DNA of 64,000 nt from a virus (taxonomy: Duplodnaviria > Caudoviricetes). The notes below the pieces were generated by a model. The model saw nothing but the letters and a program-made list of their open reading frames with translations. It ran no database searches and was not told the origin of the DNA. How positions within the stretch are numbered: position 1 is the stretch's first letter; every line of letters begins with the position of its first letter. This document shows, piece after piece, positions 5,041-36,553 of this stretch. The stretch covers positions 12,349 through 76,348 of the IMG/VR virus record IMGVR_UViG_3300033463_000086; one strand, written 5' to 3'. The position numbers were made by a program, and so were the translations under genes.

Positions 5041-5213
5041 TTATACCTCTCAGTTCCGTATGGTGGTCTGACAATCGGAATAGTTACCTGATGAAGAATC
5101 TCACCGTACTTGTCTATAATTGCTTCGGCATACTCAGGTTGTCGTTCGGTTTCCCTTACAGCATCACAAAGTATGCTAAAAGCCTCTCCAAAGTCTACTA
5201 CCTCGATTGTCAT
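5037..5213 (-). CDS. 58-aa hypothetical between the two polymerase parts
   Basis: Manual translation MTIEVVDFGEAF...GTERYK; ATGA overlaps with both neighbours. Confidence 0.65.
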   Translation of the reverse strand: MTIEVVDFGEAFSILCDAVRETERQPEYAEAIIDKYGEILHQVTIPIVRPPYGTERYK

Positions 5214-6436
5214 TCTTCAATCTCCGGGAATGTTTCGTAGAAGTGTTTAAGTTGGTCAAGAAGTACGATTGCAGTGCGGTACTCAACCAAAGAATCTATT
5301 GCATTATAGGTCAGCAATATCCTCTTCGGTATGCGATGAATTGTGTTGATTGCATAAGTGCCGTACTGTTTAATATCTTTGTCGCTGGGTTTCAATTCAG
5401 CTTCAACGTTAGCGTTCCAAACCGTAGTACCAATGAAGATAGGTGCTAAGAACTTAATTGACAGACCGCCCATATCTCTGTTATCCAAGGCATGAGCAAG
5501 AAGCATGGTGTCGATATTCAGCAGAGCCGGATTCGTACCAAGTTTCACAATACTCCAAAGCCTCTCGAAGTGTGAGTTGTGTGCAATTTTTAGAATGTGT
5601 GTCGTTCTGAGCCACTCCGTAAATTTTGGAATCGTATTAGAATCCAACATAAAGGCGTAACTCAAATCACTGTTCTCGCAAATAGACACAGACCACAGCT
5701 TCGAGTTATGGTTGTAGGGGCGTAAGCAGTTTGTCTCATAGTCGAAAGCACTCATACGGCGTTTTGGATTCTTTATCATTTCGTCCATAACGCTGACAGC
5801 ATCCGAATCCGTAAGAATCTTGACGCACTCGGTTTCTTCCTTCCAAATGCGCCGAGGTTCTTTCAGGCTGTCAAGGGCGATTTTAATATCTCGTTTAATG
5901 AGCAAATCGTCTATACTGTCCGGTCTGTTGCCTTTCACGTTAGAGTGTGGAGTAAAAGTTGACATGATGTTACACTCAAACTCCCTGCTGTTGTGGAGCA
6001 AACCGTGAACAGCTTGACAGGATGCGTCTTTTTCGACAACTCTGCTGAACAGTACCTTTGCAGACAAATCACCGAAAGCTATGATAAGGTTTGGTTTGAG
6101 CTTCTTGATTGTCTGTTTCAGGTAAGGAAAACAGCATTGTGCCTGTGTAGCCGTAATTGTGTTTCCGTAGCAAGCCACCGTTGATGTAACCCAGCAATCC
6201 AAGGAGATGTCAACACCGTAAGAGGCTAACACGTCCTTAATCCAACTGAACCTGTCCCCAATAGCATACGTCTTGCTTGTCTGCTGAATCGGGTCTTGTT
6301 TTTCAAGTAGGATAAGGATGCGTTTCTTTCCCTCACCGTATAACATCAGCTTGGAGTTCTTGATTAGGTGGCATGACGCACAGTTAGGCTCGTCATACTC
6401 AACCCTGCTCATAGATGCTGGCATTACAATTTTCAT
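5210..6436 (-). CDS. Family-4 UDG-like domain fused to PolA-type 3'-5' exonuclease
   Basis: CASCHL...YGEG, VAC, QCCFPYLKQTIKKLKPNLIIAFG (UDG4 fold); Exo motifs AFDYET, AHNSHFE, YNAIDS. Confidence 0.85.
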   Translation of the reverse strand: MKIVMPASMSRVEYDEPNCASCHLIKNSKLMLYGEGKKRILILLEKQDPIQQTSKTYAIGDRFSWIKDVLASYGVDISLDCWVTSTVACYGNTITATQAQCCFPYLKQTIKKLKPNLIIAFGDLSAKVLFSRVVEKDASCQAVHGLLHNSREFECNIMSTFTPHSNVKGNRPDSIDDLLIKRDIKIALDSLKEPRRIWKEETECVKILTDSDAVSVMDEMIKNPKRRMSAFDYETNCLRPYNHNSKLWSVSICENSDLSYAFMLDSNTIPKFTEWLRTTHILKIAHNSHFERLWSIVKLGTNPALLNIDTMLLAHALDNRDMGGLSIKFLAPIFIGTTVWNANVEAELKPSDKDIKQYGTYAINTIHRIPKRILLTYNAIDSLVEYRTAIVLLDQLKHFYETFPEIEE

Positions 6437-11159: not shown

Positions 11160-12029
11160 TTAGAATGAACCACGGAAGTCTTTATAAGCAGGGAAGATAC
11201 CGTTTTTCGCCAAGCGTATAATCTCCAACGTTTCATTCTGTAGTGTAGGTCTGTAAATGGCATCCCAATAGTCAGCAGGGATTTCTTTCATTTTTATCCC
11301 TGCGTAACGACCAACCTTCATAATTGGTTCTTTGCTCATTGAGAACGTAAACAAACCGTCAGGGTCAATGAGATACTTGTCGTTATTTGACACTGTAAGG
11401 AACCATGAGAGTTCACGAGGTTTTCTTACACCGTCATTGAAACGCTCAAGTTGCTTCTCAAACACTTCCCGATAAAGCGTAGTGTGCATGTCAGGTTCGC
11501 CTCTCAACTCAGCCTTACGTGCATTGAAGCCGTAGGGAAATACATCGTTGTAAGCCATGCTGAGATATTGCTTGCCCCTGAAATGAAGACCACGAGCAAC
11601 CATTCTTATCCGGCTTATATCGAGCTTACCTGCAATACTGAAAGCACCTCGATTATCTGTCTGATATGCCTTACGGAGTGGCAGACAAACATCGTATTCA
11701 AGATTGTTACCGCACAGAATACAACCTTCAAGGTCATAATTCAGTTCGGTAGCAACAAGACAGAAAAACTCGCCCTGATTCTTGATGGTGCTGTAGGTTA
11801 ATCCAACATCAGACCAGCCGTTTTCCGCTTTTGTTATCTCGAACGGAGGATAAACAATGAACTGCTTGTTGTGAAGTACCTTGCTCTCATCGAACCTATA
11901 TTCCACAACCTTATACTCAATATAGACAGGGTACACGTCCTTAGTGCCTCGTGTACCTACCTTGTGAGCATAGCAACAGTGGATATAGGCTATCTTGTTT
12001 CCGTCAAGCCAATGGTTTACTTGGAACAT
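11160..12029 (-). CDS. DnaQ/exonuclease X-like protein, catalytic motifs degenerate
   Basis: ILCGNNLEYDV (ExoII-like), C-terminal GRYAGIKMKEIPADYW (ExoX C-terminal/DUF3820-like); ExoI DxE not seen. Confidence 0.55.
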   Translation of the reverse strand: MFQVNHWLDGNKIAYIHCCYAHKVGTRGTKDVYPVYIEYKVVEYRFDESKVLHNKQFIVYPPFEITKAENGWSDVGLTYSTIKNQGEFFCLVATELNYDLEGCILCGNNLEYDVCLPLRKAYQTDNRGAFSIAGKLDISRIRMVARGLHFRGKQYLSMAYNDVFPYGFNARKAELRGEPDMHTTLYREVFEKQLERFNDGVRKPRELSWFLTVSNNDKYLIDPDGLFTFSMSKEPIMKVGRYAGIKMKEIPADYWDAIYRPTLQNETLEIIRLAKNGIFPAYKDFRGSF

Positions 12030-13302
12030 TGATATTCTCCTGTTTGATTAGACGGTCGATTGCTCTTATTACACGCTCTGATGTAATGTTTCTGGTGCAT
12101 GAGAACTTTGTCGTTTCAAGTGCATCTCGTTCCTGTAGAAGCATGTTGCGCTCTTCCATCGTTGGTGCTTCGTAGATTTTCTTTGTAAGCTCGAAGACCT
12201 TTTTATCGACACGAGGACACCAAAGCCAAGCACTATGCCAGAAAGGAATCGTCATATCGCCCCAACAGTCTTTACACGGATTTTCTTCATTGAAAACACG
12301 GTAAGGAGTGTAGAACTCATTTTTAGGTGCTGTGAATCCTGAAATCATAACAACAGGTTTCTCACACGCCCAAGCAAGCCAAGACAGACCTGAAGTCATA
12401 CCGATAAAGAACTCAGCACCTCTTATCTGATTGACACGATGCTGTAAGGTATAATCACCAGTCCAGTCAATAGCTTCATGTGGAGCTTTCTGATATGAAC
12501 CCGGCAGACCAACGATGTTTGTTTTGTCAATGCACATCACGTCAAATCCAAGTTCGTTCAGGTGTTTTATCACGTCAGACCACCCATACGGATTCCACCA
12601 CAGCTTGCATCCTTTACTGCCTGAGAAACCGATACAGACATAAGGACGGTCTGTTTCAATCTGTTTGGTAGCTTTCAGGATAGGCGGTTTAGGTTCGATA
12701 TTGTTCGGCAGTCCCAATATGTTAGCCGCTAAACGATTCAAACCATGCTGTTGATAAGGAAGTTTACCCCATAGCGGCTCAACGTCCTTATCGAAGAAGA
12801 TGCCGATAAAATACGTTGCGTATATGGGTATCTCGGACAGCATTGATTCGTCAGACACCATTGTTATCTCAGGATAATGTGGCGCAAACAACTCCACGAA
12901 CCAAGGCTGTGCAAATACAATCGGCTTGCATTTGTGCTTTTCGATGAACGCGAGTATCTGCGAGAAGTGGGCAATACAATCACCCAGCGTTTTATGGGCG
13001 ATTCTGAACCTGACGTACCTGTCCTTGCAATCGAATGTGGTGGAGAAAACATTGTGGGACTTCGTGTTGAGAGCCACAATCTTCCACTTCACATAATATT
13101 TGGTTGGGGTGGCGAAGTAAGCACCGGGGGCAAGCTCTACATGATATAAGAGGTCCCCTGTGTCTTCATTGAAAAAGCTGACAGACCAAGTACCTTCAAC
13201 ATCCTTTGGTGTTTTTACCTCAGCCCCATAATTGAAACTGAACTGGATTCCGGTAACAGGGTCTTTCAACAGTTTCACATCATCTTCAAACTGTTCCATC
13301 AA
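12004..13302 (-). CDS. Autotransporter strand-loop-strand O-heptosyltransferase (Aah/TibC family)
   Basis: FNYGAEV, TLGD catalytic motif, KLWWNPYGW, FIGMTSGLSWLAWACEKPVVMISGFT...EF, iron-finger CxxC...WCPR...CTR. Confidence 0.92.
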   Translation of the reverse strand: MMEQFEDDVKLLKDPVTGIQFSFNYGAEVKTPKDVEGTWSVSFFNEDTGDLLYHVELAPGAYFATPTKYYVKWKIVALNTKSHNVFSTTFDCKDRYVRFRIAHKTLGDCIAHFSQILAFIEKHKCKPIVFAQPWFVELFAPHYPEITMVSDESMLSEIPIYATYFIGIFFDKDVEPLWGKLPYQQHGLNRLAANILGLPNNIEPKPPILKATKQIETDRPYVCIGFSGSKGCKLWWNPYGWSDVIKHLNELGFDVMCIDKTNIVGLPGSYQKAPHEAIDWTGDYTLQHRVNQIRGAEFFIGMTSGLSWLAWACEKPVVMISGFTAPKNEFYTPYRVFNEENPCKDCWGDMTIPFWHSAWLWCPRVDKKVFELTKKIYEAPTMEERNMLLQERDALETTKFSCTRNITSERVIRAIDRLIKQENINVPSKPLA

Positions 13303-14654: not shown

Positions 14655-14885
14655 TTATTGTTCGTTTGTTACAGAGCCAGCCAACATATCATGTTTAGCC
14701 GCCGCACCAAGTTCTTTTGTTATTCCCGGTTCAAATGTATTCAATAGGTTTGCAATATCACCAATGGAATCCTGAAACCGACGCCCCCATGCATACGTAT
14801 CACACATGTAGCGATAGTATAACAATTTCAGCAGGTCAACACAGAAATGTAACCTCTCCGCTGTCGTGTAGGGTGGGACAATCAT
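14655..14885 (-). CDS. Hypothetical protein
   Basis: ORF coupled to methylase stop. Confidence 0.5.
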   Translation of the reverse strand: MIVPPYTTAERLHFCVDLLKLLYYRYMCDTYAWGRRFQDSIGDIANLLNTFEPGITKELGAAAKHDMLAGSVTNEQ

Positions 14886-15802
14886 TTTTGAAGTACCTCT
14901 ACTTGATGTTGAAGGTGGTAAGTTAAAAGGTCATATTGATGTTTAGGAACAAACAAACATTCTTTCACAGGGTGCATACACTTCGGTACAGGTCCGAATA
15001 TTGTGCGGTGGTCGAAAGAGGCAACCTTCAAGAATGTATCAGGCATTTCGTACTCTGATATGAAAGTCAACTGCTCCTGTTTACTGCACCAATCGTAAAA
15101 CGCCTCGTAATCGAACTTTTGATAGTTATACGTGCCTGTTCCCTTATACGGAATATCGCAGTAAACCACGCTGTAAGGCTTTATAACCACGTCCCGATAG
15201 TCAAGGGCAGTAATTATAGGTCTTTTGATATTAGCCAGCCTTAAAAGCCGTGTAAAAGCGTTGTAGTGTGGCAATACCAAATGAATCGTATCGACCGTAG
15301 ATGACTGCTCCCTGATAGCGTGTTGAACCTGACTGTATCGCATTTCCAGCGTATAGTAATCAAGGTTCTTCAGGTGTTTCAAGTCAATACCGTAACGCTT
15401 CATACCTGCTCCGTCACCAAAGAAGACGGCATTGTGGTACTGGCGTTTGTAGTCCTCAATCTCCCTGCTGTAAGCGTATGTCCTCCAATTATTACCGAAG
15501 GAGAAACAACATGAGATATAGGGGTCTGTTCTGCGCTTGTACTTGAACTCCGATATGTCAGCAAAGTGGTTCTCGTGTCTGAAACCATCACTGATTGCCC
15601 TGTCGAAGCTGTCCATAACGAACTTATCATTGTCGTTGGTGTAGACAGTGCCGAACTTCAGAGGCATAGTTGTAGCGTAGTGTGAAACGGAACCGCCACC
15701 TGCAAACAAATCATAAAAGTTATCTGCGGCTGGCATAACGTCAAGGATTTTTTCGGCTAACCTGCTTTTGCTACCCTGATAAGGCATACCGTATAGGTTC
15801 AT
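14882..15802 (-). CDS. N6-adenine DNA methyltransferase, Dam/D12-like
   Basis: PYQGSK, DLFAGGGSV (motif I), VYCDIPY (motif IV variant), EYEMP; start at ATG 15802 behind GGAGG. Confidence 0.85.
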   Translation of the reverse strand: MNLYGMPYQGSKSRLAEKILDVMPAADNFYDLFAGGGSVSHYATTMPLKFGTVYTNDNDKFVMDSFDRAISDGFRHENHFADISEFKYKRRTDPYISCCFSFGNNWRTYAYSREIEDYKRQYHNAVFFGDGAGMKRYGIDLKHLKNLDYYTLEMRYSQVQHAIREQSSTVDTIHLVLPHYNAFTRLLRLANIKRPIITALDYRDVVIKPYSVVYCDIPYKGTGTYNYQKFDYEAFYDWCSKQEQLTFISEYEMPDTFLKVASFDHRTIFGPVPKCMHPVKECLFVPKHQYDLLTYHLQHQVEVLQK

Positions 15803-15916
15803 TCCATACCTCCTGCGATAGCCAAAAGAAGAGTAAAGCCCAATATCCCTGCCGCAATCAGAAACACAAGCATGATACAGCATCTTACAAGGAACGCTGC
15901 ATCTTCCTGTTCTTGG

Positions 15917-22433: not shown

Positions 22434-23030
22434 TTACCTCTTCAATTTATTATAGTAAGCAAGTTCACGGTCTACGAATTTAACGGAACACTTCTCAACC
22501 CAAACTGCATTATTGAAGAAGTTGCCGTCAATTTCAGATGATTTCTTACCGTTTCTGAACACTTTGACACGCTTCATAACATCAGCTCTCGTGATAAAGT
22601 TAGCCCAATCAATATGTCTGATGGCGTTGCCAATGTCAGAACGACCCCAAGCCGGACGTCCTTTAACCTTGAACACGATTATATCTTCATCACTAATTTC
22701 TTTGCAGACGTCAAGAAAATCTGGATGAAGGATATTATCATCGTCAAGGATATAAACGTAGCTGTCATTCGGTACATTAAAAGCAATCAGAGCAGTATCA
22801 ATATCGGAAGCCATGAACTTATCTCCGTCAGTTTTGGAGTAGACATAGCTTATCTTATCCGCCTTATCTGCAAACGGCTTAAACTCTTCTTCCGTATGTC
22901 CTGATGTGCAGTCAACGATAAGGATATGCTGATACGTGTGTTCTGTCAAGCCGAATACGTTGCGTATACTGTCTTGTACCGCTTCAAGGTTATCAGGTCT
23001 TGAACACCTTGTGATGATTGTGAAGTGCAT
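22434..23030 (-). CDS. GT-A fold glycosyltransferase (GT2-like), paralog 1
   Basis: IITRCS, YILDDDN, IDWANF shared with neighbour. Confidence 0.7.
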   Translation of the reverse strand: MHFTIITRCSRPDNLEAVQDSIRNVFGLTEHTYQHILIVDCTSGHTEEEFKPFADKADKISYVYSKTDGDKFMASDIDTALIAFNVPNDSYVYILDDDNILHPDFLDVCKEISDEDIIVFKVKGRPAWGRSDIGNAIRHIDWANFITRADVMKRVKVFRNGKKSSEIDGNFFNNAVWVEKCSVKFVDRELAYYNKLKR

Positions 23031-25565: not shown

Positions 25566-26189
25566 ATGAACTTCACACGCAAAGACAATAACGGAAACGA
25601 AATCAAACCACCAGACGTGACGATGAATACACACACCGACAAAGGTAACGATGAAGACAAACGCGCATGTAACGACAAAGACATGCCGACAGATACATGC
25701 ACAGGCGTATTAGATGTTAGAGAGGCATTAATGACGGTGAAAGAAAATGAATCGCCAGATATGCCAATCGCTAATATGAAAGTTGAAACATTCCTCTGTA
25801 ACATAGCAGAACAATCATTACATGGGATGCCTGCACTTGTTGATGCATACAAACGGTGCGGCTTCAATGTAGATAAACCACCTGCGCTTGTCCGTAATGA
25901 TATTAGACGTCTGCTTTTCAATAAGCGCATAAAGGAACGTCTGGCATATCTAAAAGAGTGTGAATGGGAAATCAATAAGCCAGACTTATCATCCATTTGC
26001 AAGGAGTTCGAGAATATATTGAATGAAGAAGAGTTAGCTATGAACTCTCGTATCACTGCATTAAATTCCCTTGCAAAGTTAGCCGGATTACTTGAAAACA
26101 ATCAACATAAATCAGACACAAAGGTAGCGGTCATTTTCAACACGTCAGAAAAGCCGCCTATTGATGTGAAAGTAGAACAGGTGAACTAA
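25566..26189 (+). CDS. terS: Terminase small subunit (putative)
   Basis: DAYKRCGF...RRLLFNKRIKERLAYL...RITALNSLAKLAGL matches the TerS HTH and oligomerisation pattern; start behind GGAGA. Confidence 0.7.
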   Translation: MNFTRKDNNGNEIKPPDVTMNTHTDKGNDEDKRACNDKDMPTDTCTGVLDVREALMTVKENESPDMPIANMKVETFLCNIAEQSLHGMPALVDAYKRCGFNVDKPPALVRNDIRRLLFNKRIKERLAYLKECEWEINKPDLSSICKEFENILNEEELAMNSRITALNSLAKLAGLLENNQHKSDTKVAVIFNTSEKPPIDVKVEQVN

Positions 26190-27094
26190 TGAAAATTCAT
26201 ATCTGCCTCGTTACGAATGACAAGTGGTATCGTTTCATGCTCAGGACCATGTACGATATTATCATCCGCAAGAATCCTGAAACAGAAATCAAGTTCTATG
26301 TGCTTTTAGACCGTGTGGATAAGGCTGATGAACTTGACGCCTTTAACGCGATTGACGGCATTGAAGTTGTGAAGAAGAACATGGATTCCTATGAAGAGTT
26401 CGGTCAACTTAAAAGGTATCATTCGTATTGGGTCGGTCAGGAAAAGCATCTTAAATTCCTTATCCCTGAGCTTGACATTTTTGAAGGCGTTGACAGGGTT
26501 ATCTACATGGATATTGATATGCTTGCCCGAAAAGACCTGACTGATATTTACACGGTCAATCTGAATGACAAGCCTATTGGACTGTGCCGAGATTATTACA
26601 CGCTTCTCGATGGCTCATTTGCTCTGCCACCTGAAAGCCGTACAAAGCAACTGGAATCGGGTCTTATGGTTATGGACCTGCCGAAGTTGCGTGACATTCA
26701 ATTTACGAAACAGTGTAAAGACATCGCTCCTTATCACTGTGGGGATATGCCAGTGGTCAATACGATATGCACACCGATTGCACAGAAACTTGACCCGAAG
26801 TATCAGATTCCGTTCCATGAAATGAGTGTTATCGGAAACTTTAACATTATTGAACACTGGAACATTTTCAACAACACTGCCTACGAAAACATTCAGGAAC
26901 TTATCGACAAGAGTTATATATGGCATTTCTGTGGCGATAAGAAACATATGTACAATACAGTCAGTGTTGTCAGGATGGCATTCTATCTGTCTGAATCCCG
27001 TCTTTCTGCATTCCTCAAAACAGGGAATGTAATGGAATGGAAACCAGAAGATGATGCACCTCTTACGAATACATCAGATTTGAATGGTATCTGA
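26189..27094 (+). CDS. GT8 family glycosyltransferase (RfaJ/WaaJ-like)
   Basis: IHICLVTNDKW, RVIYMDIDML DxD, SGLMVMDL, WHFCGDKK. Confidence 0.88.
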   Translation: MKIHICLVTNDKWYRFMLRTMYDIIIRKNPETEIKFYVLLDRVDKADELDAFNAIDGIEVVKKNMDSYEEFGQLKRYHSYWVGQEKHLKFLIPELDIFEGVDRVIYMDIDMLARKDLTDIYTVNLNDKPIGLCRDYYTLLDGSFALPPESRTKQLESGLMVMDLPKLRDIQFTKQCKDIAPYHCGDMPVVNTICTPIAQKLDPKYQIPFHEMSVIGNFNIIEHWNIFNNTAYENIQELIDKSYIWHFCGDKKHMYNTVSVVRMAFYLSESRLSAFLKTGNVMEWKPEDDAPLTNTSDLNGI

Positions 27095-27736: not shown

Positions 27737-28039
27737 CTATTTCAATTTGATTTTCGACTGGTTAAAGGCTATGAAGGAATCAATATCACATCCTCCAATC
27801 ACAGCCTTTATGACTTCCTTCTCAAAATCAGAAAGCACGTCATAATTAACAGAACCGTCATTGTAAAATTTATACCTCGCTCTTAATGCAAACAGTTTGA
27901 GTATCTGTTTTTTATGCATTTGGTTTTCAGATACATTTAGATTGGAGTTTACATACATCAATGCAAGGATATAGTCAAGTACCGATGCATTTCCGTACTT
28001 TATCCTCTCAAACGTTATGAGAAATTGGTCGTGTGTCAT
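27737..28039 (-). CDS. Hypothetical protein
   Basis: ORF track, coupled. Confidence 0.55.
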   Translation of the reverse strand: MTHDQFLITFERIKYGNASVLDYILALMYVNSNLNVSENQMHKKQILKLFALRARYKFYNDGSVNYDVLSDFEKEVIKAVIGGCDIDSFIAFNQSKIKLK

Positions 28040-28623
28040 TGATAAGCATCCCTCTTACCTTCTGCAAGTTCAGCTATGAAAGTCTGCCTACTGGTCTCGA
28101 AGGTAATGTTATGTTTTCTGAGTGGTGCAAGACATGACGTATCGCAGTCTTGATAAATAAATGTAAATGGGTGGTGCTGGATTGTATTTATGAAGCGTAC
28201 AGGTAACGACATTCTCATAGGGCAGTAATCCCAATATGACCTTAGAGAACGACAGGTTGCCTCATATAGTTGGTCTGATTTGCCCATACTTTCTCTTGTA
28301 ATCAGCCCACGCAAATCATTTATGTCGTGCATCGTATTTGCCATATAAAATAGCAGGTCGTTTAGGTCCATCATCCTAAAGTTGAAAATGAAAATAGGCG
28401 GACAGTCCTCAATATCACATGTAAAAATGTCTATTGCGTTAAATTCATTAAGGTCAAAACTTGTTCTGCCATAATGCTTGAAGGTAACATAAACCTTATC
28501 CGCCTCAACAGCATTACCTTGGTTTTGACATGCCCTTGCGAAACATGGTCCGGCTTTTATGGAGATTGACCTGAATGGGCCACGAAGCAACGATGCAATC
28601 TCAGTGTTATCGTTGATTATCAT
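28036..28623 (-). CDS. Hypothetical protein, probable paralog family A
   Basis: VTFKHYGRTSF resembles the neighbour motif. Confidence 0.65.
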   Translation of the reverse strand: MIINDNTEIASLLRGPFRSISIKAGPCFARACQNQGNAVEADKVYVTFKHYGRTSFDLNEFNAIDIFTCDIEDCPPIFIFNFRMMDLNDLLFYMANTMHDINDLRGLITRESMGKSDQLYEATCRSLRSYWDYCPMRMSLPVRFINTIQHHPFTFIYQDCDTSCLAPLRKHNITFETSRQTFIAELAEGKRDAYQ

Positions 28624-28633
28624 TGTTATCTCC

Positions 28634-29299
28634 TTATTCGTTAGTGCATGTGAAGTTAATTAGTGTACTTGCGTCATCCCTGTTGTACTCTTCGTTGGCG
28701 ACCATATTCTGATAGATACGGCTCCATTCAGAATACGAGTAAGGCATGTCGGTAGTTGTAGCCATAGTTTTCTCAACTTTATAGGTACATGACCTTACCA
28801 CAGTAGTCCGACCATTAGTACGGTAATCTGAATCGCATAAGAACTGATATTGATACAAATGGTCAAATACCATCTTCAAAGACCTGCGAACAGCCCTATA
28901 GTATGGGTTATCACGTTGAAGCATGCTATACGTTTTCAGCATATAACAGCGCAATTTGAACAGGTTATCCTTTTCATAGTACGTATCGGGATTGCCTTGG
29001 TCATTCAATAGTTCTCTGAATTGGACCTCTCTTGTGTATTTTACGAACTCACGAAGAACGTCATGGACATAAGGCAGGTTCTCATAGCCCTGATAAATGA
29101 AAGGGATAGCCGGAGCCTTATTCTTATCAATCACGACGATGAAGGGATATAGATGTTCAATACCGTACCACCGCATATTCCATCTCATGCGTGACAGTCT
29201 TTTGAATCTTATCCCGAAATCAGGCATTTTTATCGTTGCCTGAACACGACCGAACTTAAACTTATCTTCAAGTTCAGGTATTAATGTGTTATCAGTCAT
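28634..29299 (-). CDS. Hypothetical protein, paralog family A
   Basis: PELEDKF, IKMPDFGIRF, AIPFI. Confidence 0.7.
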   Translation of the reverse strand: MTDNTLIPELEDKFKFGRVQATIKMPDFGIRFKRLSRMRWNMRWYGIEHLYPFIVVIDKNKAPAIPFIYQGYENLPYVHDVLREFVKYTREVQFRELLNDQGNPDTYYEKDNLFKLRCYMLKTYSMLQRDNPYYRAVRRSLKMVFDHLYQYQFLCDSDYRTNGRTTVVRSCTYKVEKTMATTTDMPYSYSEWSRIYQNMVANEEYNRDDASTLINFTCTNE

Positions 29300-29309
29300 T
29301 GTAAACTCC

Positions 29310-29903
29310 TTAGTATGTTAGACGTGGACCGAGGTTTGCTGTGATTGGCGCGGCATTGATTACGAGTGACGGTGATGCATCTTCAAGGTATCTGATGTTT
29401 AAGTCCTCGAAGTTACCATCGTCAACACGTACAGACATTAAAGAACGATATGACATTGGCTCTCCGTTCAGTGTGTAAAAAGCATTGTCACGAGAGCCAA
29501 TCCACATTTTATACAGTTTGTCATAAGTGTCCTTGTTGAATACCTCCATCATATTTATCTCTGACCGAAGAAGCCAACAGCATATCTGAAACGACACATC
29601 TGAAGCCATTGGTTGATAGTCGTTTAGATAATCTTCAACGATACCGTCATAATAAGCCTCTCCGCCGTATCTCAGAATGTCAACGAACATACTTTGAAGG
29701 CGAAGATTCCAGTTAGCCCATCTGTCAGCAAGTGAAATGAAAGGTACAGGCTCTTTGATGCCGGAATGCAACTTACACGCATAGACGTTGTAATTTGATA
29801 ACGACATTCTACCATGATACGTAACCGCCACGTCCATATCTTCAAGACGAATGAATCTGAGTGGCGGCGTGTCTAACATGTCTTTTATCATATCAGATTC
29901 CAT
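29310..29903 (-). CDS. Hypothetical protein, paralog family A
   Basis: IRLEDMDVAVTYHG, PVPFI. Confidence 0.7.
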   Translation of the reverse strand: MESDMIKDMLDTPPLRFIRLEDMDVAVTYHGRMSLSNYNVYACKLHSGIKEPVPFISLADRWANWNLRLQSMFVDILRYGGEAYYDGIVEDYLNDYQPMASDVSFQICCWLLRSEINMMEVFNKDTYDKLYKMWIGSRDNAFYTLNGEPMSYRSLMSVRVDDGNFEDLNIRYLEDASPSLVINAAPITANLGPRLTY

Positions 29904-29904
29904 G

Positions 29905-30426
29905 TTACCAACCCTCTAATTTGATTGTTTGGTTGAATGTGAAGAAGGTACAACTTAACGGTGAACGAAAATATGCAGTCCTATTTTCTACAAGTGCATT
30001 TTCATACCACCTAATCTTGTCGATGAAGTGATTCCTGTCAACAAATGAAGCCATACGGTGTCGATAACAAAGATATGCAAAGAAACTATCCCTACTCAAC
30101 CTATGAGAAAGCCGACGGTCGCTTGCAACATCTCTATTCAGTCCGTTATTTTCGGCATAGAATTTTAGATATTGCAGGATATACCATACACTAAGTTCCT
30201 GTCTTGGAAACGATGACTCTAATGCACAGTCGCAAATCTCATTCGTATCGAGGTTCATAATAGAGAAGAAGTAAATGTAAGTGTTATCATAGAAATCATC
30301 ACCGTAAAATTTGATTCCGATATTCATTTTTGGAATATAAATTTCGACGTGTGCATACTCATGAAACATCATCTTCTCTCTGAGTTTGACAGTAACCCAA
30401 TCATTCTTGAAAGGTTTACTTGCCAT
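29905..30426 (-). CDS. Hypothetical protein, paralog family A
   Basis: IYIPKMNIGIKFYG. Confidence 0.7.
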   Translation of the reverse strand: MASKPFKNDWVTVKLREKMMFHEYAHVEIYIPKMNIGIKFYGDDFYDNTYIYFFSIMNLDTNEICDCALESSFPRQELSVWYILQYLKFYAENNGLNRDVASDRRLSHRLSRDSFFAYLCYRHRMASFVDRNHFIDKIRWYENALVENRTAYFRSPLSCTFFTFNQTIKLEGW

Positions 30427-30700
30427 GAGGGTCCTTTCCGTATTTGAGTTTCATAAGGTTGATGTTGTAGAGTTTCAGCCCATCCAACACAGAGTAGAAT
30501 GAGCAACCACGAAAGGTTTTATGGTAGAACGGACAGCCATTACACTTGCGGAAGCCCTTTTTATTATGACGGCGACCACAAATGCCTTCAAAGGTTGTCA
30601 GAACATTCACGAGGTCTACTTTATCTTTACCTGTCATTGGATGCTCTCCTCTTGGTTCGAGCTTTATATGCTTCGTAAGAGAGGGTATCATTCCCATCAA
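30416..30700 (-). CDS. Small Cys-rich protein (CxxCP family)
   Basis: ICG...KCNGCPFY...GC. Confidence 0.6.
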   Translation of the reverse strand: MMGMIPSLTKHIKLEPRGEHPMTGKDKVDLVNVLTTFEGICGRRHNKKGFRKCNGCPFYHKTFRGCSFYSVLDGLKLYNINLMKLKYGKDPHGK

Positions 30701-31085
30701 AAAATGAAACAGGACCCGAACCGAGCATAAATTTCTTATGTGACTGTACGCTCTTCAAGATGCCGAGCAACAGATTTTCGAGTGCTTCTTTTGCATCTTC
30801 TCGTGTATCAAACAGCCACCATTCCGGTACGCATCTGACTGAATACATACCATTTGAAGCTACGCAACGAGTACCATAATCGTCAATAGGTACGACAATT
30901 ACATTACCCAATTCCTCATCCAATACCTCAACATGAAGGATTGAGTACCCCTGAAGATTAGGATGTGCGTGTAACATGAATTTACATTTATTCATCGAAA
31001 TAGTCCATTTTATGTTCTTCTTCGGCGTCATTGATTGCTTCACGCAGGTCATTGAGTTGCTCACAGTCGCTACCATAACCTGCAC
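30627..31085 (-). CDS. Hypothetical protein (true start probably MNKCKF)
   Basis: ORF track. Confidence 0.55.
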   Translation of the reverse strand: MQVMVATVSNSMTCVKQSMTPKKNIKWTISMNKCKFMLHAHPNLQGYSILHVEVLDEELGNVIVVPIDDYGTRCVASNGMYSVRCVPEWWLFDTREDAKEALENLLLGILKSVQSHKKFMLGSGPVSFFDGNDTLSYEAYKARTKRRASNDR

Positions 31086-31179
31086 CGTAAATGGCGATAC
31101 CGATAATCAGTTTTGCCATTTCTATCAAAAGTGTATCACGGGTTGTTTGTTTCATTGTTATCACCACCTCCAAGCTCAT
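30988..31179 (-). CDS. Hypothetical protein
   Basis: ORF track; GGAGGTG RBS before MKQTT. Confidence 0.5.
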   Translation of the reverse strand: MSLEVVITMKQTTRDTLLIEMAKLIIGIAIYGAGYGSDCEQLNDLREAINDAEEEHKMDYFDE

Positions 31180-31495
31180 TCATAAGAAACTCACTGATTG
31201 CTCTCCCAATGTCATCCATTTGAGTATCATCAGGAGGATTCACAATGACTGGTTCGACTTGCTTGTGTTTGTATGAGGCGTGTTTGTTCTGCCCATTCAA
31301 ATCATCGACTGCCCTGCGAATAAGAATGCTCTTATCCACAAGGTCATCCAATTGTGCTAAGAAACAACCGCTATGCAGATTGAACGGACACTGACTGCAC
31401 ATGAGAGTATGACAAGAAACACTGCCTGTCATAAAAATCATGTTAATGTTCTTAGCCACACTTTCAAGATAGGCTACCGATGGGTCTTTTGACAT
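31136..31495 (-). CDS. Small Cys-rich protein (CxxCP family)
   Basis: SCHTLMCSQCPFN...GCFL. Confidence 0.65.
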   Translation of the reverse strand: MSKDPSVAYLESVAKNINMIFMTGSVSCHTLMCSQCPFNLHSGCFLAQLDDLVDKSILIRRAVDDLNGQNKHASYKHKQVEPVIVNPPDDTQMDDIGRAISEFLMNELGGGDNNETNNP

Positions 31496-31499
31496 TTTA

Positions 31500-31763
31500 T
31501 TACCTTTCTTTTGCGTGTTTGCATTCGCTTCTTAGGGCGATTAATGCGTTATCAAGTTTAGGGGCGAGACTAATGGCTGCAAGCATTCTTACGAGAAAGC
31601 AACCATCTGAATGAGGAAAGTTTAACGGACACTGAGAACATATCCTGTTGGTACACATGCTTTCTGTCATAATTTGCAGTGTATAAACAGTCTTGATAAT
31701 GTTATCCCTGAGCGTTGTACATTCGTCTGTTGTTAGTGACATAAGGGGCATGGCACACCTCAT
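31500..31763 (-). CDS. Small Cys-rich protein (CxxCP family)
   Basis: MCTNRICSQCPLN...GCFL. Confidence 0.65.
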   Translation of the reverse strand: MRCAMPLMSLTTDECTTLRDNIIKTVYTLQIMTESMCTNRICSQCPLNFPHSDGCFLVRMLAAISLAPKLDNALIALRSECKHAKER

Positions 31764-32416
31764 AAGAAGTTATCAGGGTTAATGTACTCATCCCTTGAGT
31801 AGATGTAATCGTCAAGGTGCATACGGAAAGAGTATTCGTGTCCATGTGTGAATATAACACGACGGATGCCACGACCACTCCCAATCAATGACGCCTTAGC
31901 CAACAAATGTCCATCAAACTCAGAGGGCGGTTCGTAGATGCTGTACTGATGCCCATAAATACAACGGACACATGTATTGCCTACAACATCCACTAACATT
32001 CTGAACTTTTCCCGAAGAAGCCTGTATGACTGACACCTTGCGAACATATTACGACAGACACACTCGAACATCATGTCTTTATCGTCTTGAGATTCGTACT
32101 GTGTCATAGAGAAATCATCTTCAGGGTCTCCATATGTGAGAATCTTGCATAGGGGCCAGATGATATGGGCGAGGTTCAGTGGGATATTGTTGACATACAT
32201 AATAGGAACCACCATATCGAATGGTACGGTTCTCTTGCCGACTTTCTCATAGATAACCACAACCGCGTATCTTACATTGGTGGACGGGCTTTGAACTGAA
32301 CCACGATAAGCCAATGTAAGGTCGATTTGCGGAAAACAGAATGCAGAGAAAGGTATATGCCTCGACATACGCGACAAAAGCGTATCTGCAAACTTATCAT
32401 CAAAATCTGGAAGCAT
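31760..32416 (-). CDS. Hypothetical protein, paralog family A
   Basis: PDFDDKF, FCFPQIDLTLAYRG, TVPF. Confidence 0.7.
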   Translation of the reverse strand: MLPDFDDKFADTLLSRMSRHIPFSAFCFPQIDLTLAYRGSVQSPSTNVRYAVVVIYEKVGKRTVPFDMVVPIMYVNNIPLNLAHIIWPLCKILTYGDPEDDFSMTQYESQDDKDMMFECVCRNMFARCQSYRLLREKFRMLVDVVGNTCVRCIYGHQYSIYEPPSEFDGHLLAKASLIGSGRGIRRVIFTHGHEYSFRMHLDDYIYSRDEYINPDNFL

Positions 32417-32467: not shown

Positions 32468-33523
32468 TTATTTCTTGGCTGCGGTACTTTCGACATTCAG
32501 TTTGAAGTTCTTCTTGAACTCATTCCAAATTGCCTGTTTCGTATCGGGACCATACTCGTCCCAATGATTCGGATAACGGTCCTCGACATAGTGCTTGAAG
32601 AGAATCCCTGCATCAGATTCGTAATACGCATCGAGTTCACGTTCAGTAATGTTCTTGGCAAACATCTGACCGCTTTCCTCCATGTCGTAATACGCACCAT
32701 AGTATGCGTTGTAGATTTCCTCTTTTTGGTCAGCCGAGTAAGATTCCCATTCAGGCTCGTTGGCAATCACGTAAGCCATGAAATCTTCGTCACCCTCGGT
32801 GTATTCATCGATGAACTTTTCTTCATCGACACCGTAGTGAGTGCGATTCTTATACAATGCGTCAGACCAATCTCTCCGATAGTCTTCATAAGAATCGTAG
32901 CCGTACTCTTTCCACCATTCATTTGTGGACACGAGTCCTTTTCCCCAATAACCGCCACTGTAAATGGAGTATGAGTAGGTCTTGTTTGAATAGTAGACGC
33001 CCTTATCCTTAATCCAGTCACCCATAAGGTAGACTTTGACGCCGTTCATCAGGGCAATCTTGTTTGTTCCGAGGAAGCCATCAAAAGCGTCCTTAAACTT
33101 TTCGGATGTAAGACCAGATTCAGCAATCCTCAATGCCATTTCAGCGGTATCGGAGATGTTATTCTTGCGCGGCTCGATAGGCAAAACCCCATTGTGAATC
33201 AGGCAACGAGGGCATACCGTGTAAGTCTTGCCTAACTGCTTCACATTCGTCGTGATAGGGAACGGATGGGTGTTCTCTTTATTGATACCACCATGCGTGT
33301 GAATCCTGAAATGAATCAACACGTCATATCCGTTCAGTTTCTTGAGTTGGGAATCATAGACCTTTTCAAAGTCCTTCCAGTCCATGATACCTTTGTGGAT
33401 GTGGCACTGACCATCCTTTCGGACAGCATAACCGGCTCCGTCAGGATTCGATTCCCAACAATTCTCGAAAATGCTCAATTCAGGCATTTTCACGCCTTCG
33501 GGCTTGTAAATTGCGATGCACAT
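32468..33523 (-). CDS. Class II (Ntn) glutamine amidotransferase with acidic Tyr-rich C-terminal extension
   Basis: N-terminal Cys2 (MCIAIYKP), NPDGAG, HFRIHTHG, NTHPF, IHNG. Confidence 0.9.
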   Translation of the reverse strand: MCIAIYKPEGVKMPELSIFENCWESNPDGAGYAVRKDGQCHIHKGIMDWKDFEKVYDSQLKKLNGYDVLIHFRIHTHGGINKENTHPFPITTNVKQLGKTYTVCPRCLIHNGVLPIEPRKNNISDTAEMALRIAESGLTSEKFKDAFDGFLGTNKIALMNGVKVYLMGDWIKDKGVYYSNKTYSYSIYSGGYWGKGLVSTNEWWKEYGYDSYEDYRRDWSDALYKNRTHYGVDEEKFIDEYTEGDEDFMAYVIANEPEWESYSADQKEEIYNAYYGAYYDMEESGQMFAKNITERELDAYYESDAGILFKHYVEDRYPNHWDEYGPDTKQAIWNEFKKNFKLNVESTAAKK

Positions 33524-33526
33524 AAC

Positions 33527-34624
33527 TTATACACCTTTCCTTTCGATAAGAGCGTTAGCCTTATCATAGTTGTGTTCTTTGATGAACGTCTTGAACGAAG
33601 CAAATGCAGTTCTCGGCGTTTCAATGATGAGTTGGTCGAGGCACTCCGTATGAATGTGATGAACCCAACGAACAAGAGCGTCAATGAGTTCCAAATCTTC
33701 ATACAGAGTATTGATGTTCGTTGTGCTTGCGAACATTCTGAACTCGATTGTGTACTGGCTCGAATGATAGTTGACGGCACTGTATCTGTCCATGTCGTCA
33801 ATGTTGTTCGAGAAACTGCTGAATGAGCCGTAACTGTAATACTCGGCATAATCATTTCCTTCACGCCGAGCAAGTTGTTCAAAGCGTTCACTGTTCTCAT
33901 TCACAAACCAACCGACCATGTACCATTCGAGGCTGTCCATGAACTGTTTGGAGGCGTGGATATGAAGTCCGCACTTGTAATGAGCATGAAGACCCCAATC
34001 ACGAAGAAGGGCGAGAATATTGTTCCATTTCTTGAAGTCAGTACGATACTCTTCAAGCGTATGCGGAGTGCTGATGAGTTCAAACCCATAGTCGGGAATC
34101 GAACCGTCATGCTCAAGATAGAACATATCCTTGCTGCTGTCGTAGTTTTCGTCATCCTCGTCAGTGGCATTACGAAGAGGCTTCAATGCTTCGACACAGG
34201 AAAGCATATCATCTTCGCCAGTGTCGCCAGTTTCCAACTCAAAGCCGAACCGAAGTTTACCATCATCGGGAACTTGGTATTCGTGGGAATGATAACCACC
34301 GATTCCACCACGATGCCGTCTGATTTCATTGATGCACGAGTGACAGCACATCTGACCACGGTAGCGAGTGAGGTTATCCATAGTGAAATCGTTGCCGCAG
34401 TGTTCGCATTGTGCGCCGACGCTCTCGTAGCACTGGTCGCATACGTGCCTATCACCACGATTCATAGAATGGCGGTTGGTTGCCCTGTACCACTCGTGAC
34501 ATTCATCGCACTGGAAGTAGAGGATTGAATGGCACTGTTCGCAGAAAGCACCATCGTCATTGACGTAAGATGCTTGCCGTCCACAAATGATGCAGACGTC
34601 GGGGTTTTCATTTTCTTCCGGCAT
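33527..34624 (-). CDS. Putative amidoligase (COOH-NH2 ligase type) with N-terminal zinc-ribbon repeats, copy B
   Basis: FGFELE, HDGSI, GFELISTP, CGLHIH, RYSAVN, TIEFRMF. Confidence 0.88.
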   Translation of the reverse strand: MPEENENPDVCIICGRQASYVNDDGAFCEQCHSILYFQCDECHEWYRATNRHSMNRGDRHVCDQCYESVGAQCEHCGNDFTMDNLTRYRGQMCCHSCINEIRRHRGGIGGYHSHEYQVPDDGKLRFGFELETGDTGEDDMLSCVEALKPLRNATDEDDENYDSSKDMFYLEHDGSIPDYGFELISTPHTLEEYRTDFKKWNNILALLRDWGLHAHYKCGLHIHASKQFMDSLEWYMVGWFVNENSERFEQLARREGNDYAEYYSYGSFSSFSNNIDDMDRYSAVNYHSSQYTIEFRMFASTTNINTLYEDLELIDALVRWVHHIHTECLDQLIIETPRTAFASFKTFIKEHNYDKANALIERKGV

Positions 34625-34781
34625 AAGACTTGCCCTTTCTCTGTTTGGTTTTGAAGATGGACTTCATTTTGTTGTTGAACTCGATGCGCTTGAGGGCATT
34701 ACGCTCTCGCACATACTCGGCTTTTGTCATTACGGACACACTTCGCCCATAATTGACAACGACAAGTTCGGGACGTTCCAT
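34608..34781 (-). CDS. Small basic hypothetical protein
   Basis: TAATG coupling to GGCT stop; MERPELV... Confidence 0.5.
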   Translation of the reverse strand: MERPELVVVNYGRSVSVMTKAEYVRERNALKRIEFNNKMKSIFKTKQRKGKSYAGRK

Positions 34782-35182
34782 TACACATACTCCTGTGGGT
34801 AGTGTTGTTTGTGGTATGCTCTCCAATCCCCATTCGGAATAAGGATGAAAGAGCGTTGAATCTGTTCTCGCTTGAAGAAATAGACGAATCCATGAACATT
34901 GGCTCCGTCAAACGTCTTAGCAGTTATGAGCTTTCGCCCATACAGCTTCGGATAGCCCTCAAGCCTGTCAATGTCGGGAAGGGATGTTGGAGGCAGAATC
35001 ATAAGTTCCGCCTTAATCTGCGTATGTCCCTCAAGAACCAATGCAGGGAAGTTATACCTTGTATCGAACAATGTGCCGAAGAAGGTAACAGGAACGATAC
35101 CCATGCAATTACGGCAAAGGTAATGATTCCTCTGCCCCGACATAAGGGTTCCATACGTGATAATCTGTACTGAATCAGGCAT
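34781..35182 (-). CDS. Gamma-glutamylcyclotransferase (AIG2-like)
   Basis: ITYGTLM...NH, IDRLEGYPKLY. Confidence 0.88.
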   Translation of the reverse strand: MPDSVQIITYGTLMSGQRNHYLCRNCMGIVPVTFFGTLFDTRYNFPALVLEGHTQIKAELMILPPTSLPDIDRLEGYPKLYGRKLITAKTFDGANVHGFVYFFKREQIQRSFILIPNGDWRAYHKQHYPQEYV

Positions 35183-36335
35183 AACGACACCTCTTCATGG
35201 CTTCTTCGAGCTGTTCATTGACGCGACGATAGAGATAATTTGCATTTTTATCCCCATTCGTCTCTTCCATGCGCTTCTTATTCCAGTTGAACCAGTCATA
35301 AACTGCGCGGCGAGGCATTTCAACCATATGCAGATTACCGAGAGGCATTGTGTCCTTTGCCCACTCATACAATCCCTGAACAATGGCAAGATGTCCGAAG
35401 AAATCATCCGCACAATCCACAGGGCAGAAAATGCGAAACTCACAGGTAACATGAGTTGACGTGCAGAAAGACAATGCCGCATAGTGCGTATCGTCCTGTC
35501 TTTCCCAGAAACCCTCACGGTAATCATCGTCAGGGTCTCCATATTCAACCCAATCATTTTCTTCACGACCAGCCAGTTCCTCGAACAATGACTGATTCTT
35601 AGAAATGAACCACTGCAACGCTCTCCACGTCAATGCCGGAAGAGCCGCCTTAGTGATATGCACATGGAAACCACAGGAATAGTGCGGCTTCATATCGTGG
35701 TTGCTGAACGTATCATACAAGTTCTCAACCATGTTTTTGTGAGCAAGCCACCAGTCCCATGTGTAAGGATTGGAAATGGTCTCGAACCCATAGTCACGGA
35801 TAGAACCATCTTCTTCCATGACAAAGAAACGACCGAAGTCATTTTCAATCTCACCCGAACAACGGCGCATATCCTCGGAACAGGCATCGCCCATTTCGAG
35901 TTCCACACCGAGGTAAGGCATATCACCTTTTTTGAGTCTGGGGCAGTCATAATCGTGGGAATGATAACCACCAATGTCACCTGCCCTGTGTTGCTCGGAC
36001 TGATGCTCTTCGTAGCAATCATAGCAGAAGTCCTCTTCACAGTCCTCGCAGTAATAAATGTCGTCACTATGGACAACTTCACCGCAACGAGCGCAGGTGT
36101 AGTAATGGTCATCGTAGCACTCACGACACACGCAATCATAGCTGCCAATCTGCATCATTTCAGCAGAGGCAACGACATTACCGCAATCAGGACAAACGCA
36201 GAAATCGTCATCTTTGTTGTCCTCATAGCAGGTGTCACAGAGATGGTAGGTTTTCCCATCAATTTCGACAATGTGGATTTCATCATCGTCGCAGTTGTCC
36301 AAAGAGCAACCGCAGTCATAATAGTCGCAACGCAT
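35175..36335 (-). CDS. Putative amidoligase with N-terminal zinc-ribbon repeats, copy A
   Basis: LGVELE, EDGSI, GFETISNP, CGFHVH, TCEFRIF. Confidence 0.88.
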   Translation of the reverse strand: MRCDYYDCGCSLDNCDDDEIHIVEIDGKTYHLCDTCYEDNKDDDFCVCPDCGNVVASAEMMQIGSYDCVCRECYDDHYYTCARCGEVVHSDDIYYCEDCEEDFCYDCYEEHQSEQHRAGDIGGYHSHDYDCPRLKKGDMPYLGVELEMGDACSEDMRRCSGEIENDFGRFFVMEEDGSIRDYGFETISNPYTWDWWLAHKNMVENLYDTFSNHDMKPHYSCGFHVHITKAALPALTWRALQWFISKNQSLFEELAGREENDWVEYGDPDDDYREGFWERQDDTHYAALSFCTSTHVTCEFRIFCPVDCADDFFGHLAIVQGLYEWAKDTMPLGNLHMVEMPRRAVYDWFNWNKKRMEETNGDKNANYLYRRVNEQLEEAMKRCRYA

Positions 36336-36553
36336 AATCGTTACTCCATTATTTAGTTTGTTTTGGTTTGAAATGAACTTATCGACAAAGGTTTATGCCG
36401 ATAACGGTTTAGTTCCATATCCTCCTAAATATGGAAACGTTGGTTGATACTCTAACTTAAATCATAAAGCACCGAATGAACCGATGCCTTATGATTTAGA
36501 TTAGAATGTAGGCGGCAGTAATGAAACCACCGCCCATATCCAAGAACCGAATG

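Follow-up and report, generated by a model that had tools for sequence, protein, structure and literature searches.

Organization of the amidoligase cassette

The DNA analyzed here, called the window, is a 64,000-nt stretch that covers bases 12349-76348 of a complete 76,348-bp phage genome in IMG/VR (IMGVR_UViG_3300033463_000086). The genome has direct terminal repeats and an estimated completeness of 100%. The phage is siphovirus-like, with plus-strand terminase, portal, major head, and tape-measure genes from ~44.9 kb, and its replication genes are carried on the minus strand. The subject of this analysis is a cassette of five open reading frames (ORFs), all on the minus strand, that encode in order amidoligase A, a gamma-glutamylcyclotransferase (GGCT), a small basic protein, amidoligase B, and a class II glutamine amidotransferase (GATase)-type hydrolase. 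The cassette is labeled 'early' from its genome position alone. A first-pass annotation made from the DNA letters had proposed this gene set, and the five ORFs were found on the minus strand in exactly the order and at the coordinates that it gave. Its family assignments also held, with B and the GGCT identified by Pfam, A identified through B, and the GATase identified by invariant residues and fold.

35175..36335, minus strand: amidoligase A, 386 aa, pI 4.4; PF12224 at 2.6e-4; phrog_7469/2443 'amidoligase'
35991-36335, minus strand: zinc-finger region of A (aa 1-115), with six CxxC and 18 Cys, followed by a carboxylate-amine ligase domain of the glutamine synthetase (GS) fold
34781..35182, minus strand: gamma-glutamyl(amine) cyclotransferase of the AIG2/GGACT type, 133 aa; PF06094 at 7.7e-19; phrog_2520 at 2.8e-22
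34608..34781, minus strand: conserved basic protein, 57 aa, pI 10.6, overlapping the GGCT stop at its start and B at its end
33527..34624, minus strand: amidoligase B, 365 aa, pI 4.9; PF12224 at 7.9e-9
34310-34624, minus strand: zinc-finger region of B (aa 1-105), with six CxxC, enough for three Zn sites, followed by a GS-fold ligase domain
32468..33523, minus strand: GATase-type N-terminal nucleophile (Ntn) amidohydrolase, 351 aa, identified by invariant columns and a fold match
32963-33523, minus strand: GATase catalytic domain (aa 1-187), nucleophile Cys2
aa 188-351 of the GATase, minus strand: C-terminal region, acidic, Tyr/Trp-rich, and partly helical, ending in a conserved AAKK

The genes are tightly packed. 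A and the GGCT overlap by 8 nt, the GGCT and the small ORF share a TAATG stop/start overlap, the small ORF and B overlap by 17 nt, and B is separated from the GATase by 3 nt. A 218-nt non-coding stretch sets the cassette apart from the upstream genes. The five genes follow a conserved structured leader and are translationally coupled to one another. Consensus scans for promoters and terminators near the cluster gave results at chance level. A near-identity DNA search of the GenBank phages gave no match. None of the five proteins was matched by PADLOC, so they are not known defense components. NCBIfam searches with the five proteins returned one model, GlmS, which scored the GATase at 17 bits, far below its cut-off of 381. 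Viral loci in the comparison set carry L numbers. The close relative L006 is the only other locus with all five genes, and L007 lacks the cyclotransferase but keeps the other four, namely the two ligases, the small ORF, and the GATase.

An obligate two-gene core

The distribution of the gene set was examined in 80 IMG/VR loci that were chosen on the GATase alone; IMG/VR holds at least 538 such stretches. An amidoligase lies upstream on the same strand in 78 of the 78 loci that have upstream DNA, and the other three end at a contig edge. The ligase directly adjoins the GATase in most loci and is 1-2.5 kb away in about ten. Gaps measured in 56 adjacent ligase/GATase pairs are mostly 0-40 nt. A profile from the alignment of A, B, and their relatives matched 25,265 representatives of clusters at 50% identity, with 5,831 matches below 1e-30, and most matches span both the finger region and the catalytic domain. 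Neighbor clustering in 84 loci yielded no third shared partner. The obligate core is two genes, an Amidoligase_2 gene followed by a class II GATase-type Cys1 hydrolase gene. The second ligase, the cyclotransferase of the gamma-glutamylamine (GGACT) type, and the small protein are clade-specific additions to this core, and across the family the GGCT, ATP-grasp ligases, and extra ligases are interchangeable add-ons. The window cassette very probably belongs to this phage two-gene module as a lineage-specific elaboration.

Three features had been singled out as special in the first-pass annotation, and all three are family norms. Zinc-finger arrays are ordinary: the number of CxxC per ligase runs from 0 to 13 in 56 distinct partner ligases, and the commonest count is 8. 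The acidic aromatic GATase tail is also ordinary, reaching at least 30 aa in 85 of ~96 homologs, where Asp+Glu make up 18% and aromatic residues 16% on average. A plurality of ligases is seen elsewhere as well, both in published cassettes and in several loci here, where two to four ligases occur or the pair is repeated. The number of zinc fingers is weakly correlated with the length of the GATase tail (rho 0.34, p 0.011), a value that is not corrected for relatedness and serves as a lead only. Ligase/GATase pairs stand in tandem at L086, L088, and L049. The L086 contig (IMGVR_UViG_3300001528_000580, 440,868 bp) holds no fewer than four ligases and five GATase-like genes in a span of 12.7 kb, and the N-terminal Cys is missing from two of these GATase-like genes. 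The cassette is thus a further copy of a known and very common phage gene set, one present in thousands of phages. Iyer, Abhiman, Burroughs and Aravind reportedly described phage amidoligase cassettes of the LUZ24-like and phiEco32 kind in 2009 on the basis of comparative genomics. The ligase/GATase module is among the commonest enzyme pairs of unassigned function in phage early regions.

The strict ligase-then-GATase pairing at short spacing is most simply explained if the two proteins form a two-component glutamine-dependent amidotransferase. Ammonia released from free glutamine by the GATase would be delivered to a target carboxylate that the ligase has activated as an acyl phosphate, giving a carboxamide. 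The product could be, for example, Gln made from Glu on a protein, or an amidated carboxylate of the cell wall or of a metabolite. Both ligases would draw on one GATase, and the GGCT would be a peripheral add-on. The minimal module contains exactly the two parts that an amidotransferase needs. However, a fusion of GAT-II (class II GATase) to an amidoligase was not found among the ten long family members checked, and in all class II amidotransferases known to us the glutaminase is fused to the synthase. Amidation is the chief rival of the gamma-glutamyl reading favored below and is somewhat less probable.

Amidoligases A and B

B matches PF12224 (Amidoligase_2) with 36.2 bits, above the cut-off of 22, and A falls just below it with 21.4 bits. 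A and B are 32% identical over 320 aa (E 4e-37) in an alignment that spans the IGGYHSH junction present in both. On this alignment they are paralogs, as had been proposed from the shared junction. PF12224 is matched at E <= 0.01 in all 67 aligned relatives, A included. All 67 sequences, A and B among them, share the residues E129, E131, D173, E182, H221, H223, R254, E294, and R296 (B numbering) without exception. By analogy with GS, these columns are predicted to be the metal and phosphate ligands. Misaligned catalytic Glu, His, or Arg residues had been named in the first-pass annotation as grounds for giving up its reading of the cassette; the residues are intact in both ligases. A and B also keep the paired N-terminal cysteines in alignments of 16 and 67 relatives.

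An AlphaFold model of B (pLDDT 92.8, pTM 0.77) was compared with known structures using Foldseek. The top matches are YbdK/GCS2 (1r8g, 1tt4), glutamine synthetases, Dop, and plant GCL, with probabilities of 0.97-1.0 and TM scores of only 0.3-0.43. This check of the GS/GCS2 fold was made on B, one ligase of the two. A sequence search of the PDB with B, the GATase, and the GGCT returned nothing meaningful.

The N-terminal arrays were described in the first-pass annotation as five to seven CxxC units forming zinc ribbons. Six CxxC are present in each ligase, but the zinc ribbon label fits less well than LIM-like double zinc fingers, the term that these arrays probably deserve, with PF00412 LIM matches in 14 of 67 family members (best E 3.3e-10). 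LIM or ankyrin fusions occur in family members P0011, P0015, and P0016. The Atlas clusters nearest to the finger regions are LIM-like at a score of 0.88, which is below the 0.9 line and is a lead only. The arrays of A and B have diverged from each other and are ~20% identical. Judged from these sequences, the variable finger arrays point to macromolecular targets.

The nearest solved ligase folds are gamma-glutamylcysteine-ligase-type enzymes, which favors small-molecule or envelope chemistry. The enzymes would make or remodel a glutamate-containing peptide or amine conjugate, such as a glutathione-like compound, a polyamine conjugate, or a modified peptidoglycan stem peptide. The effect would be to alter the cell wall so that other phages are kept out, or to redirect how the host metabolizes nitrogen or thiols. 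Ligases of the ATP-grasp or 'glutathione synthase'-like type are present in the cassettes of LUZ24 (gp21), UFV-P2 (ORF28), DES1, and Phage-ZRK32, and this too is in line with such chemistry. Passages of two citing papers (PMC10580990, PMC11318856) credit Iyer et al. 2009 with the idea of cell-wall modification and superinfection exclusion in phiEco32, or of secondary metabolism, and state that the function of the cassette is unknown. Arrays of three to six zinc fingers and paralog-variable LIM or ankyrin fusions are hard to reconcile with a small-molecule substrate, however. The cluster has no membrane, export, or cell-wall genes, and the nitrogen-metabolism claim made for Phage-ZRK32 is indirect. 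Small-molecule or envelope chemistry is improbable as the function of the module.

Class II GATase-type hydrolase

The GATase does not pass the Pfam cut-off (PF13230, E 0.084, 12.2 bits against 23), and it matches phrog_25883 at 4.9e-8. It belongs to a divergent phage subfamily. The protein begins with MCIA, and M1 and C2 are invariant in 30 homologs. An MC start is found in ~94 of ~96 viral homologs, the exceptions being two L086 paralogs. R73, H110-N111-G112, and D125 are likewise invariant in the 30 homologs. We take these residues to be the Arg73, Asn-Gly, and Asp of PurF/GlmS, judging from the motif context (HNG, SDT) and not from structural superposition. In class II enzymes the Arg binds the alpha-carboxylate of the glutamine or gamma-glutamyl substrate, the Asn-Gly pair forms the oxyanion hole, and the Asp binds the alpha-amino group. 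The AlphaFold model has a pLDDT >90 for most of residues 1-185, with values of 81-89 near residues 71-80, 111-120, and 141-150. Foldseek matched the model to the GlmS/GFAT-1 glutaminase domain, EgtC (4zfj, 4zfk, 4zfl), and PurF with a probability of 1.0.

These results bear on the amidotransferase explanation from both sides. The canonical class II glutamine-site residues (Cys1, Arg73, Asn-Gly, Asp125) are invariant, and the top structural neighbors, GlmS/GFAT and PurF, are the glutaminase domains of true amidotransferases. A class II enzyme needs a free N-terminal Cys, which would explain why the GATase is a separate downstream gene with its own, possibly ligase-docking, C-terminal domain. 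On the other hand, EgtC is a pure hydrolase and matches the GATase model about as well as the amidotransferases do.

The C-terminal 164 aa of the GATase have a pI of 4.4 and contain 37 D/E, 21 Tyr, and 7 Trp. The region had been noted as a long acidic Tyr-rich tail. The composition is as described, but the region is not a simple tail, since much of it is modeled as helices. Residues ~245-340 are helical in the AlphaFold model with a pLDDT of mostly ~78-92 and a dip to ~50-65 at residues 278-287. Only residues 189-234 and the last 10 residues look disordered, and the C-terminal end, AAK(E)K, is conserved.

GGCT and the small basic protein

The GGCT matches PF06094 with 68.9 bits against a cut-off of 22.8, over profile positions 2-119 of 120. 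The translation has YGTL at residues 10-13 and Glu75 within DRLEG; from human GGACT, we presume that Glu75 is catalytic. The GGCTs of the window and L006 are 77% identical, and these are the only 2 of the 84 loci searched that have the gene. Amidation gives no role to the GGCT, to the GAT-II-GGCT fusion in Phage C75C1, or to the Clostridium sets that combine amidoligases and a GGCT without a GATase.

The small basic ORF had been proposed with a TTG start at 34826. It is a real gene, with relatives in L006 (80% identical) and L007 (38% over 39 aa), but its start is most likely the ATG at 34781, because the part from this ATG is what the relatives conserve. Only 5 related clusters were found among 5.8 billion proteins, where it is called as a gene. 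The protein has no match in Pfam, PHROG, PADLOC, NCBIfam, or Atlas, and on its sequence relatives it is clade-restricted. The idea that this protein is a Pup-like substrate, or one resembling a ribosomally synthesized and post-translationally modified peptide (RiPP), was set aside. Conservation falls in the N-terminal half of the protein, the C-terminus varies and is basic, and almost all modules lack the protein.

Gamma-glutamyl ligation as the favored mechanism

All partners in the module are enzymes of glutamate or gamma-glutamyl chemistry. To our knowledge, every characterized GS-fold ligase activates the gamma-carboxylate of glutamate (GS, GCL/GCS2, PuuA, GmaS, PafA). The ligand of class II GATase domains is glutamine or a gamma-glutamyl amide, bound by way of the residues kept in the window GATase, and EgtC, which has this fold, serves only to hydrolyze gamma-glutamyl bonds. 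GGACT releases the amine from gamma-glutamyl amines and leaves 5-oxoproline. The gamma-glutamyl amide is thus the one bond common to all three enzyme types, which leads to a gamma-glutamyl ligation and editing reading of the module. We favor the proposal that the ligases link glutamate, through its gamma-carboxylate, to amines of finger-selected macromolecules while the GATase and GGACT act as editors, and assign it a probability of roughly 40%.

The proposed reaction would begin with each ligase using ATP to turn the glutamate gamma-carboxylate into an acyl phosphate. The activated carboxylate would then be joined to an amine on a macromolecule, most likely a host or phage protein, picked by the finger array. 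The two diverged arrays would address two targets or two sites. The product would be a gamma-glutamyl amide with its alpha-amino and alpha-carboxyl groups free, which is the type of substrate used by class II GATase-type hydrolases and GGACT. The GATase and GGACT would trim, reverse, or clean up these amides, and as editors they could keep chains from growing too long, clear away off-target products, or recycle glutamate. As for the small basic protein, it would be an accessory, acting as an adaptor or a regulator.

Several observations weigh against gamma-glutamyl ligation. A glutamine-dependent amidotransferase accounts no less simply for the strict one-to-one pairing of ligase and GATase, and a writer encoded in one operon with its erasers is odd. 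The GGCT has no counterpart in nearly all relatives, L007 included, so it is not essential to the core chemistry. The finger regions of A and B reach only sub-threshold Pfam matches (DZR 0.0037, DUF7685 0.06), and zinc fingers of this type can bind nucleic acids too. We found no experimental study of any module member in the literature.

The first-pass annotation had proposed a reversible writer/eraser system in which the two ligases would act in sequence, the GATase would donate ammonia, and the purpose would be superinfection exclusion or the disabling of a host defense or target protein; these parts of its reading are conjectural. It also mixed two models, with the GATase as an ammonia donor in one and as part of a gamma-glutamyl write/erase system in the other. 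A version that spans both chemistries is modular protein tagging. The LIM-like array of each ligase would pick a different host protein, to which glutamate would be attached or whose carboxylate would be amidated early in infection, and the hydrolase and cyclotransferase would edit the result. This version is doubtful. If it were true, phages would possess in the module their own equivalent of pupylation or tubulin glutamylation, and the numerous diverged copies found in jumbo phages would amount to a panel of target specificities. The window copy does not settle the product, but the comparison narrows the question to a two-gene core with interchangeable add-ons. The question belongs to the whole family, and the cultured phages LUZ24, phiEco32, and Marvin are better test cases than this uncultured phage.

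Structured leader upstream of gene A

The non-coding stretch that precedes the cassette is strongly structured, and it is the one new side observation of this analysis.

36336..36553, minus strand: leader, 218 nt, strongly structured, upstream of amidoligase A
36536-36509, minus strand: GC-rich hairpin of the leader fold
36507-36449, minus strand: long hairpin of ~26 bp
36435-36414, minus strand: hairpin containing AGGAGG
36404-36379, minus strand: fourth hairpin, followed by the Shine-Dalgarno sequence GGAG and the ATG at 36335
36418-36353, minus strand: possible 21-aa leader ORF that follows the AGGAGG and ends at the ribosome-binding site of gene A

The minimum free energy of the leader is -75 kcal/mol (z = -7.2 against 200 shuffles). 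The 17.5-kb early block contains only three long inverted repeats, and the 26-bp hairpin is among them. The leader DNA is 87-90% identical to that of L006 and L096 over ~210 nt; for comparison, identity is ~70% between the adjoining DNA and that of the near-identical relative L095, and 61% between protein A and its L006 counterpart. The leader is better conserved than the flanking genes. Its hairpins are kept in five sequences in which seven pairs have changed on both sides. An alternative pairing between the AGGAGG segment and the ribosome-binding site of gene A is predicted from a four-sequence alignment. The leader has no match in Rfam. These features suggest RNase III processing, translational control of the cassette as its own unit, or both.

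Genome context and DNA modification

Eight minus-strand ORFs of 87-221 aa lie directly downstream of the cassette (28036-32416) and have no Pfam match. The window has three glycosyltransferase genes, at 26189-27094 (plus strand), 22434-23030 (minus strand), and 12004-13302 (minus strand). They encode a GT8 enzyme (PF01501, 4e-18), a protein with a weak GT2-like match, and a TibC/heptosyltransferase-like GT9 enzyme (PF21129 and PF01075), and the GT8 gene is also kept in L006. A D12-class N6-adenine DNA methyltransferase (PF02086, 1e-13) is encoded at 14882-15883 on the minus strand. At 5210-6436, also on the minus strand, a 408-aa protein has both a region of the uracil-DNA-glycosylase superfamily and a PolA-type 3'-5' exonuclease, and a polymerase is encoded separately next to it (3676-5040). 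In L092, outside the window, a gene at 2562-3590 (genome coordinates) encodes a reverse transcriptase (RVT_1, 5e-16) and lies directly downstream of a 654-aa ORF without a family match. These two genes may form a diversity-generating retroelement that acts on a tail protein.

The cassette enzymes could also tailor hypermodified bases of the phage's own DNA. Metavirome clusters that combine an amidoligase and a glutamine amidotransferase with 5-HMUDK, aGPT-Pplase, or TET/JBP genes have been described (Lee et al., NAR 2021, PMC8989533). The phage has a Dam-like methylase and three glycosyltransferases, and zinc fingers could bind DNA. The genome is complete and contains no thymidylate-synthase-like hydroxymethylase (PF00303; the positive controls matched). 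TET/JBP (PF12851) was not found in the genome either, in a search made without a positive control. Pfam scans of 45 larger ORFs show no kinase or DNA transferase; several of these ORFs have no Pfam match at all, and 5-HMUDK and aGPT-Pplase were not searched by accession. The 84 loci share no third partner. DNA hypermodification has no support in the genome of the window and is a very improbable explanation of the module.

Comparison with known systems

The first-pass annotation placed the cassette among neighborhoods known from comparative genomics whose function is unresolved. This agrees with the citing papers and with the gene sets of LUZ24, UFV-P2, and Clostridium. LUZ24 gp18-gp22 encode an amidoligase, a GAT-II, a small protein, a RimK-like ATP-grasp ligase, and a GGCT beside the primase/helicase, and the UFV-P2 block (ORF21-28) includes a second GS-like ligase (PF14395). 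The window shares with both phages an Amidoligase_2, a class II GATase, a small protein, and a GGCT in a same-strand block near the replication genes, and it shares with UFV-P2 the presence of two GS-like ligases. In contrast to LUZ24 gp21 and UFV-P2 ORF28, an ATP-grasp ligase is missing from the five window genes and 20 neighboring ORFs, and the window has a second Amidoligase_2 paralog. BLASTP comparisons of B with gp18 and of the GATase with gp19 gave nothing significant, making these proteins family-level relatives only. The window ligases have zinc-finger arrays, whereas the alignment of B with gp18 suggests that gp18 has none. The GATase is 351 aa in the window and 510 aa in LUZ24, gp20 is unrelated to the small protein of the window, and the gene orders differ.

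Other cassettes combine the same parts differently. In Clostridium clostridioforme prophages, the table of the published paper lists two amidoligases and a GGCT without a GATase. This one paper served as the check on bacterial contexts and on Pfam's statement that in Firmicutes GAT-II is replaced by AIG2. Phage C75C1 (L011 4001-4897, OQ984151.1) encodes a 298-aa GAT-II-GGCT fusion with an amidoligase gene 0.85 kb upstream, and the C-terminal part of the fusion matches the window GGCT at 2.6e-8. Xanthomonas phage DES1 has a GGCT, a GAT-II, and an enzyme of the ATP-grasp type. The two-gene core of the window is the same as that of Mycobacterium phage Marvin-type gp105/gp106, Methylophilales phages MEP401/402, and the uncultured IMG/VR pairs. 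In most of these pairs the gap is tiny, the GATase starts with MC(I/V) and usually has an acidic aromatic tail, and the ligases usually have 6-10 CxxC. The window differs from them in adding a second ligase, GGACT, and the 57-aa protein.

Three characterized types of system resemble the module in part. The likeness to MurT/GatD and to the class II amidotransferases AsnB, GlmS, and PurF is that an ATP-using ligase and a glutaminase would together make the module a self-sufficient unit for amidation. MurT differs in having a Mur-ligase fold and GatD in being a class I GATase. In AsnB, GlmS, and PurF the glutaminase is fused N-terminally to the synthase, whereas in the module it is always a separate downstream gene. 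The pupylation enzymes PafA, a ligase, and Dop, a deamidase/depupylase, write and erase a gamma-glutamyl-lysine isopeptide with the GS fold, and Dop is among the fold matches of B. However, no Pup-like tag ending in Gly-Gly-Gln/Glu is encoded here, the small ORF ends in AGRK, the candidate eraser has an Ntn hydrolase or GGACT fold, and the fold matches are weak (TM ~0.3). In ergothioneine synthesis, EgtA is a gamma-glutamylcysteine ligase and EgtC takes the gamma-glutamyl group off again; the two differ from the module in having a small-molecule substrate, no zinc fingers, partners (EgtB/EgtD) without a counterpart here, and an identity of ~16-17%. Like the module, EgtA/EgtC pair a GS-superfamily ligase with a stand-alone hydrolase of the class II GATase fold.

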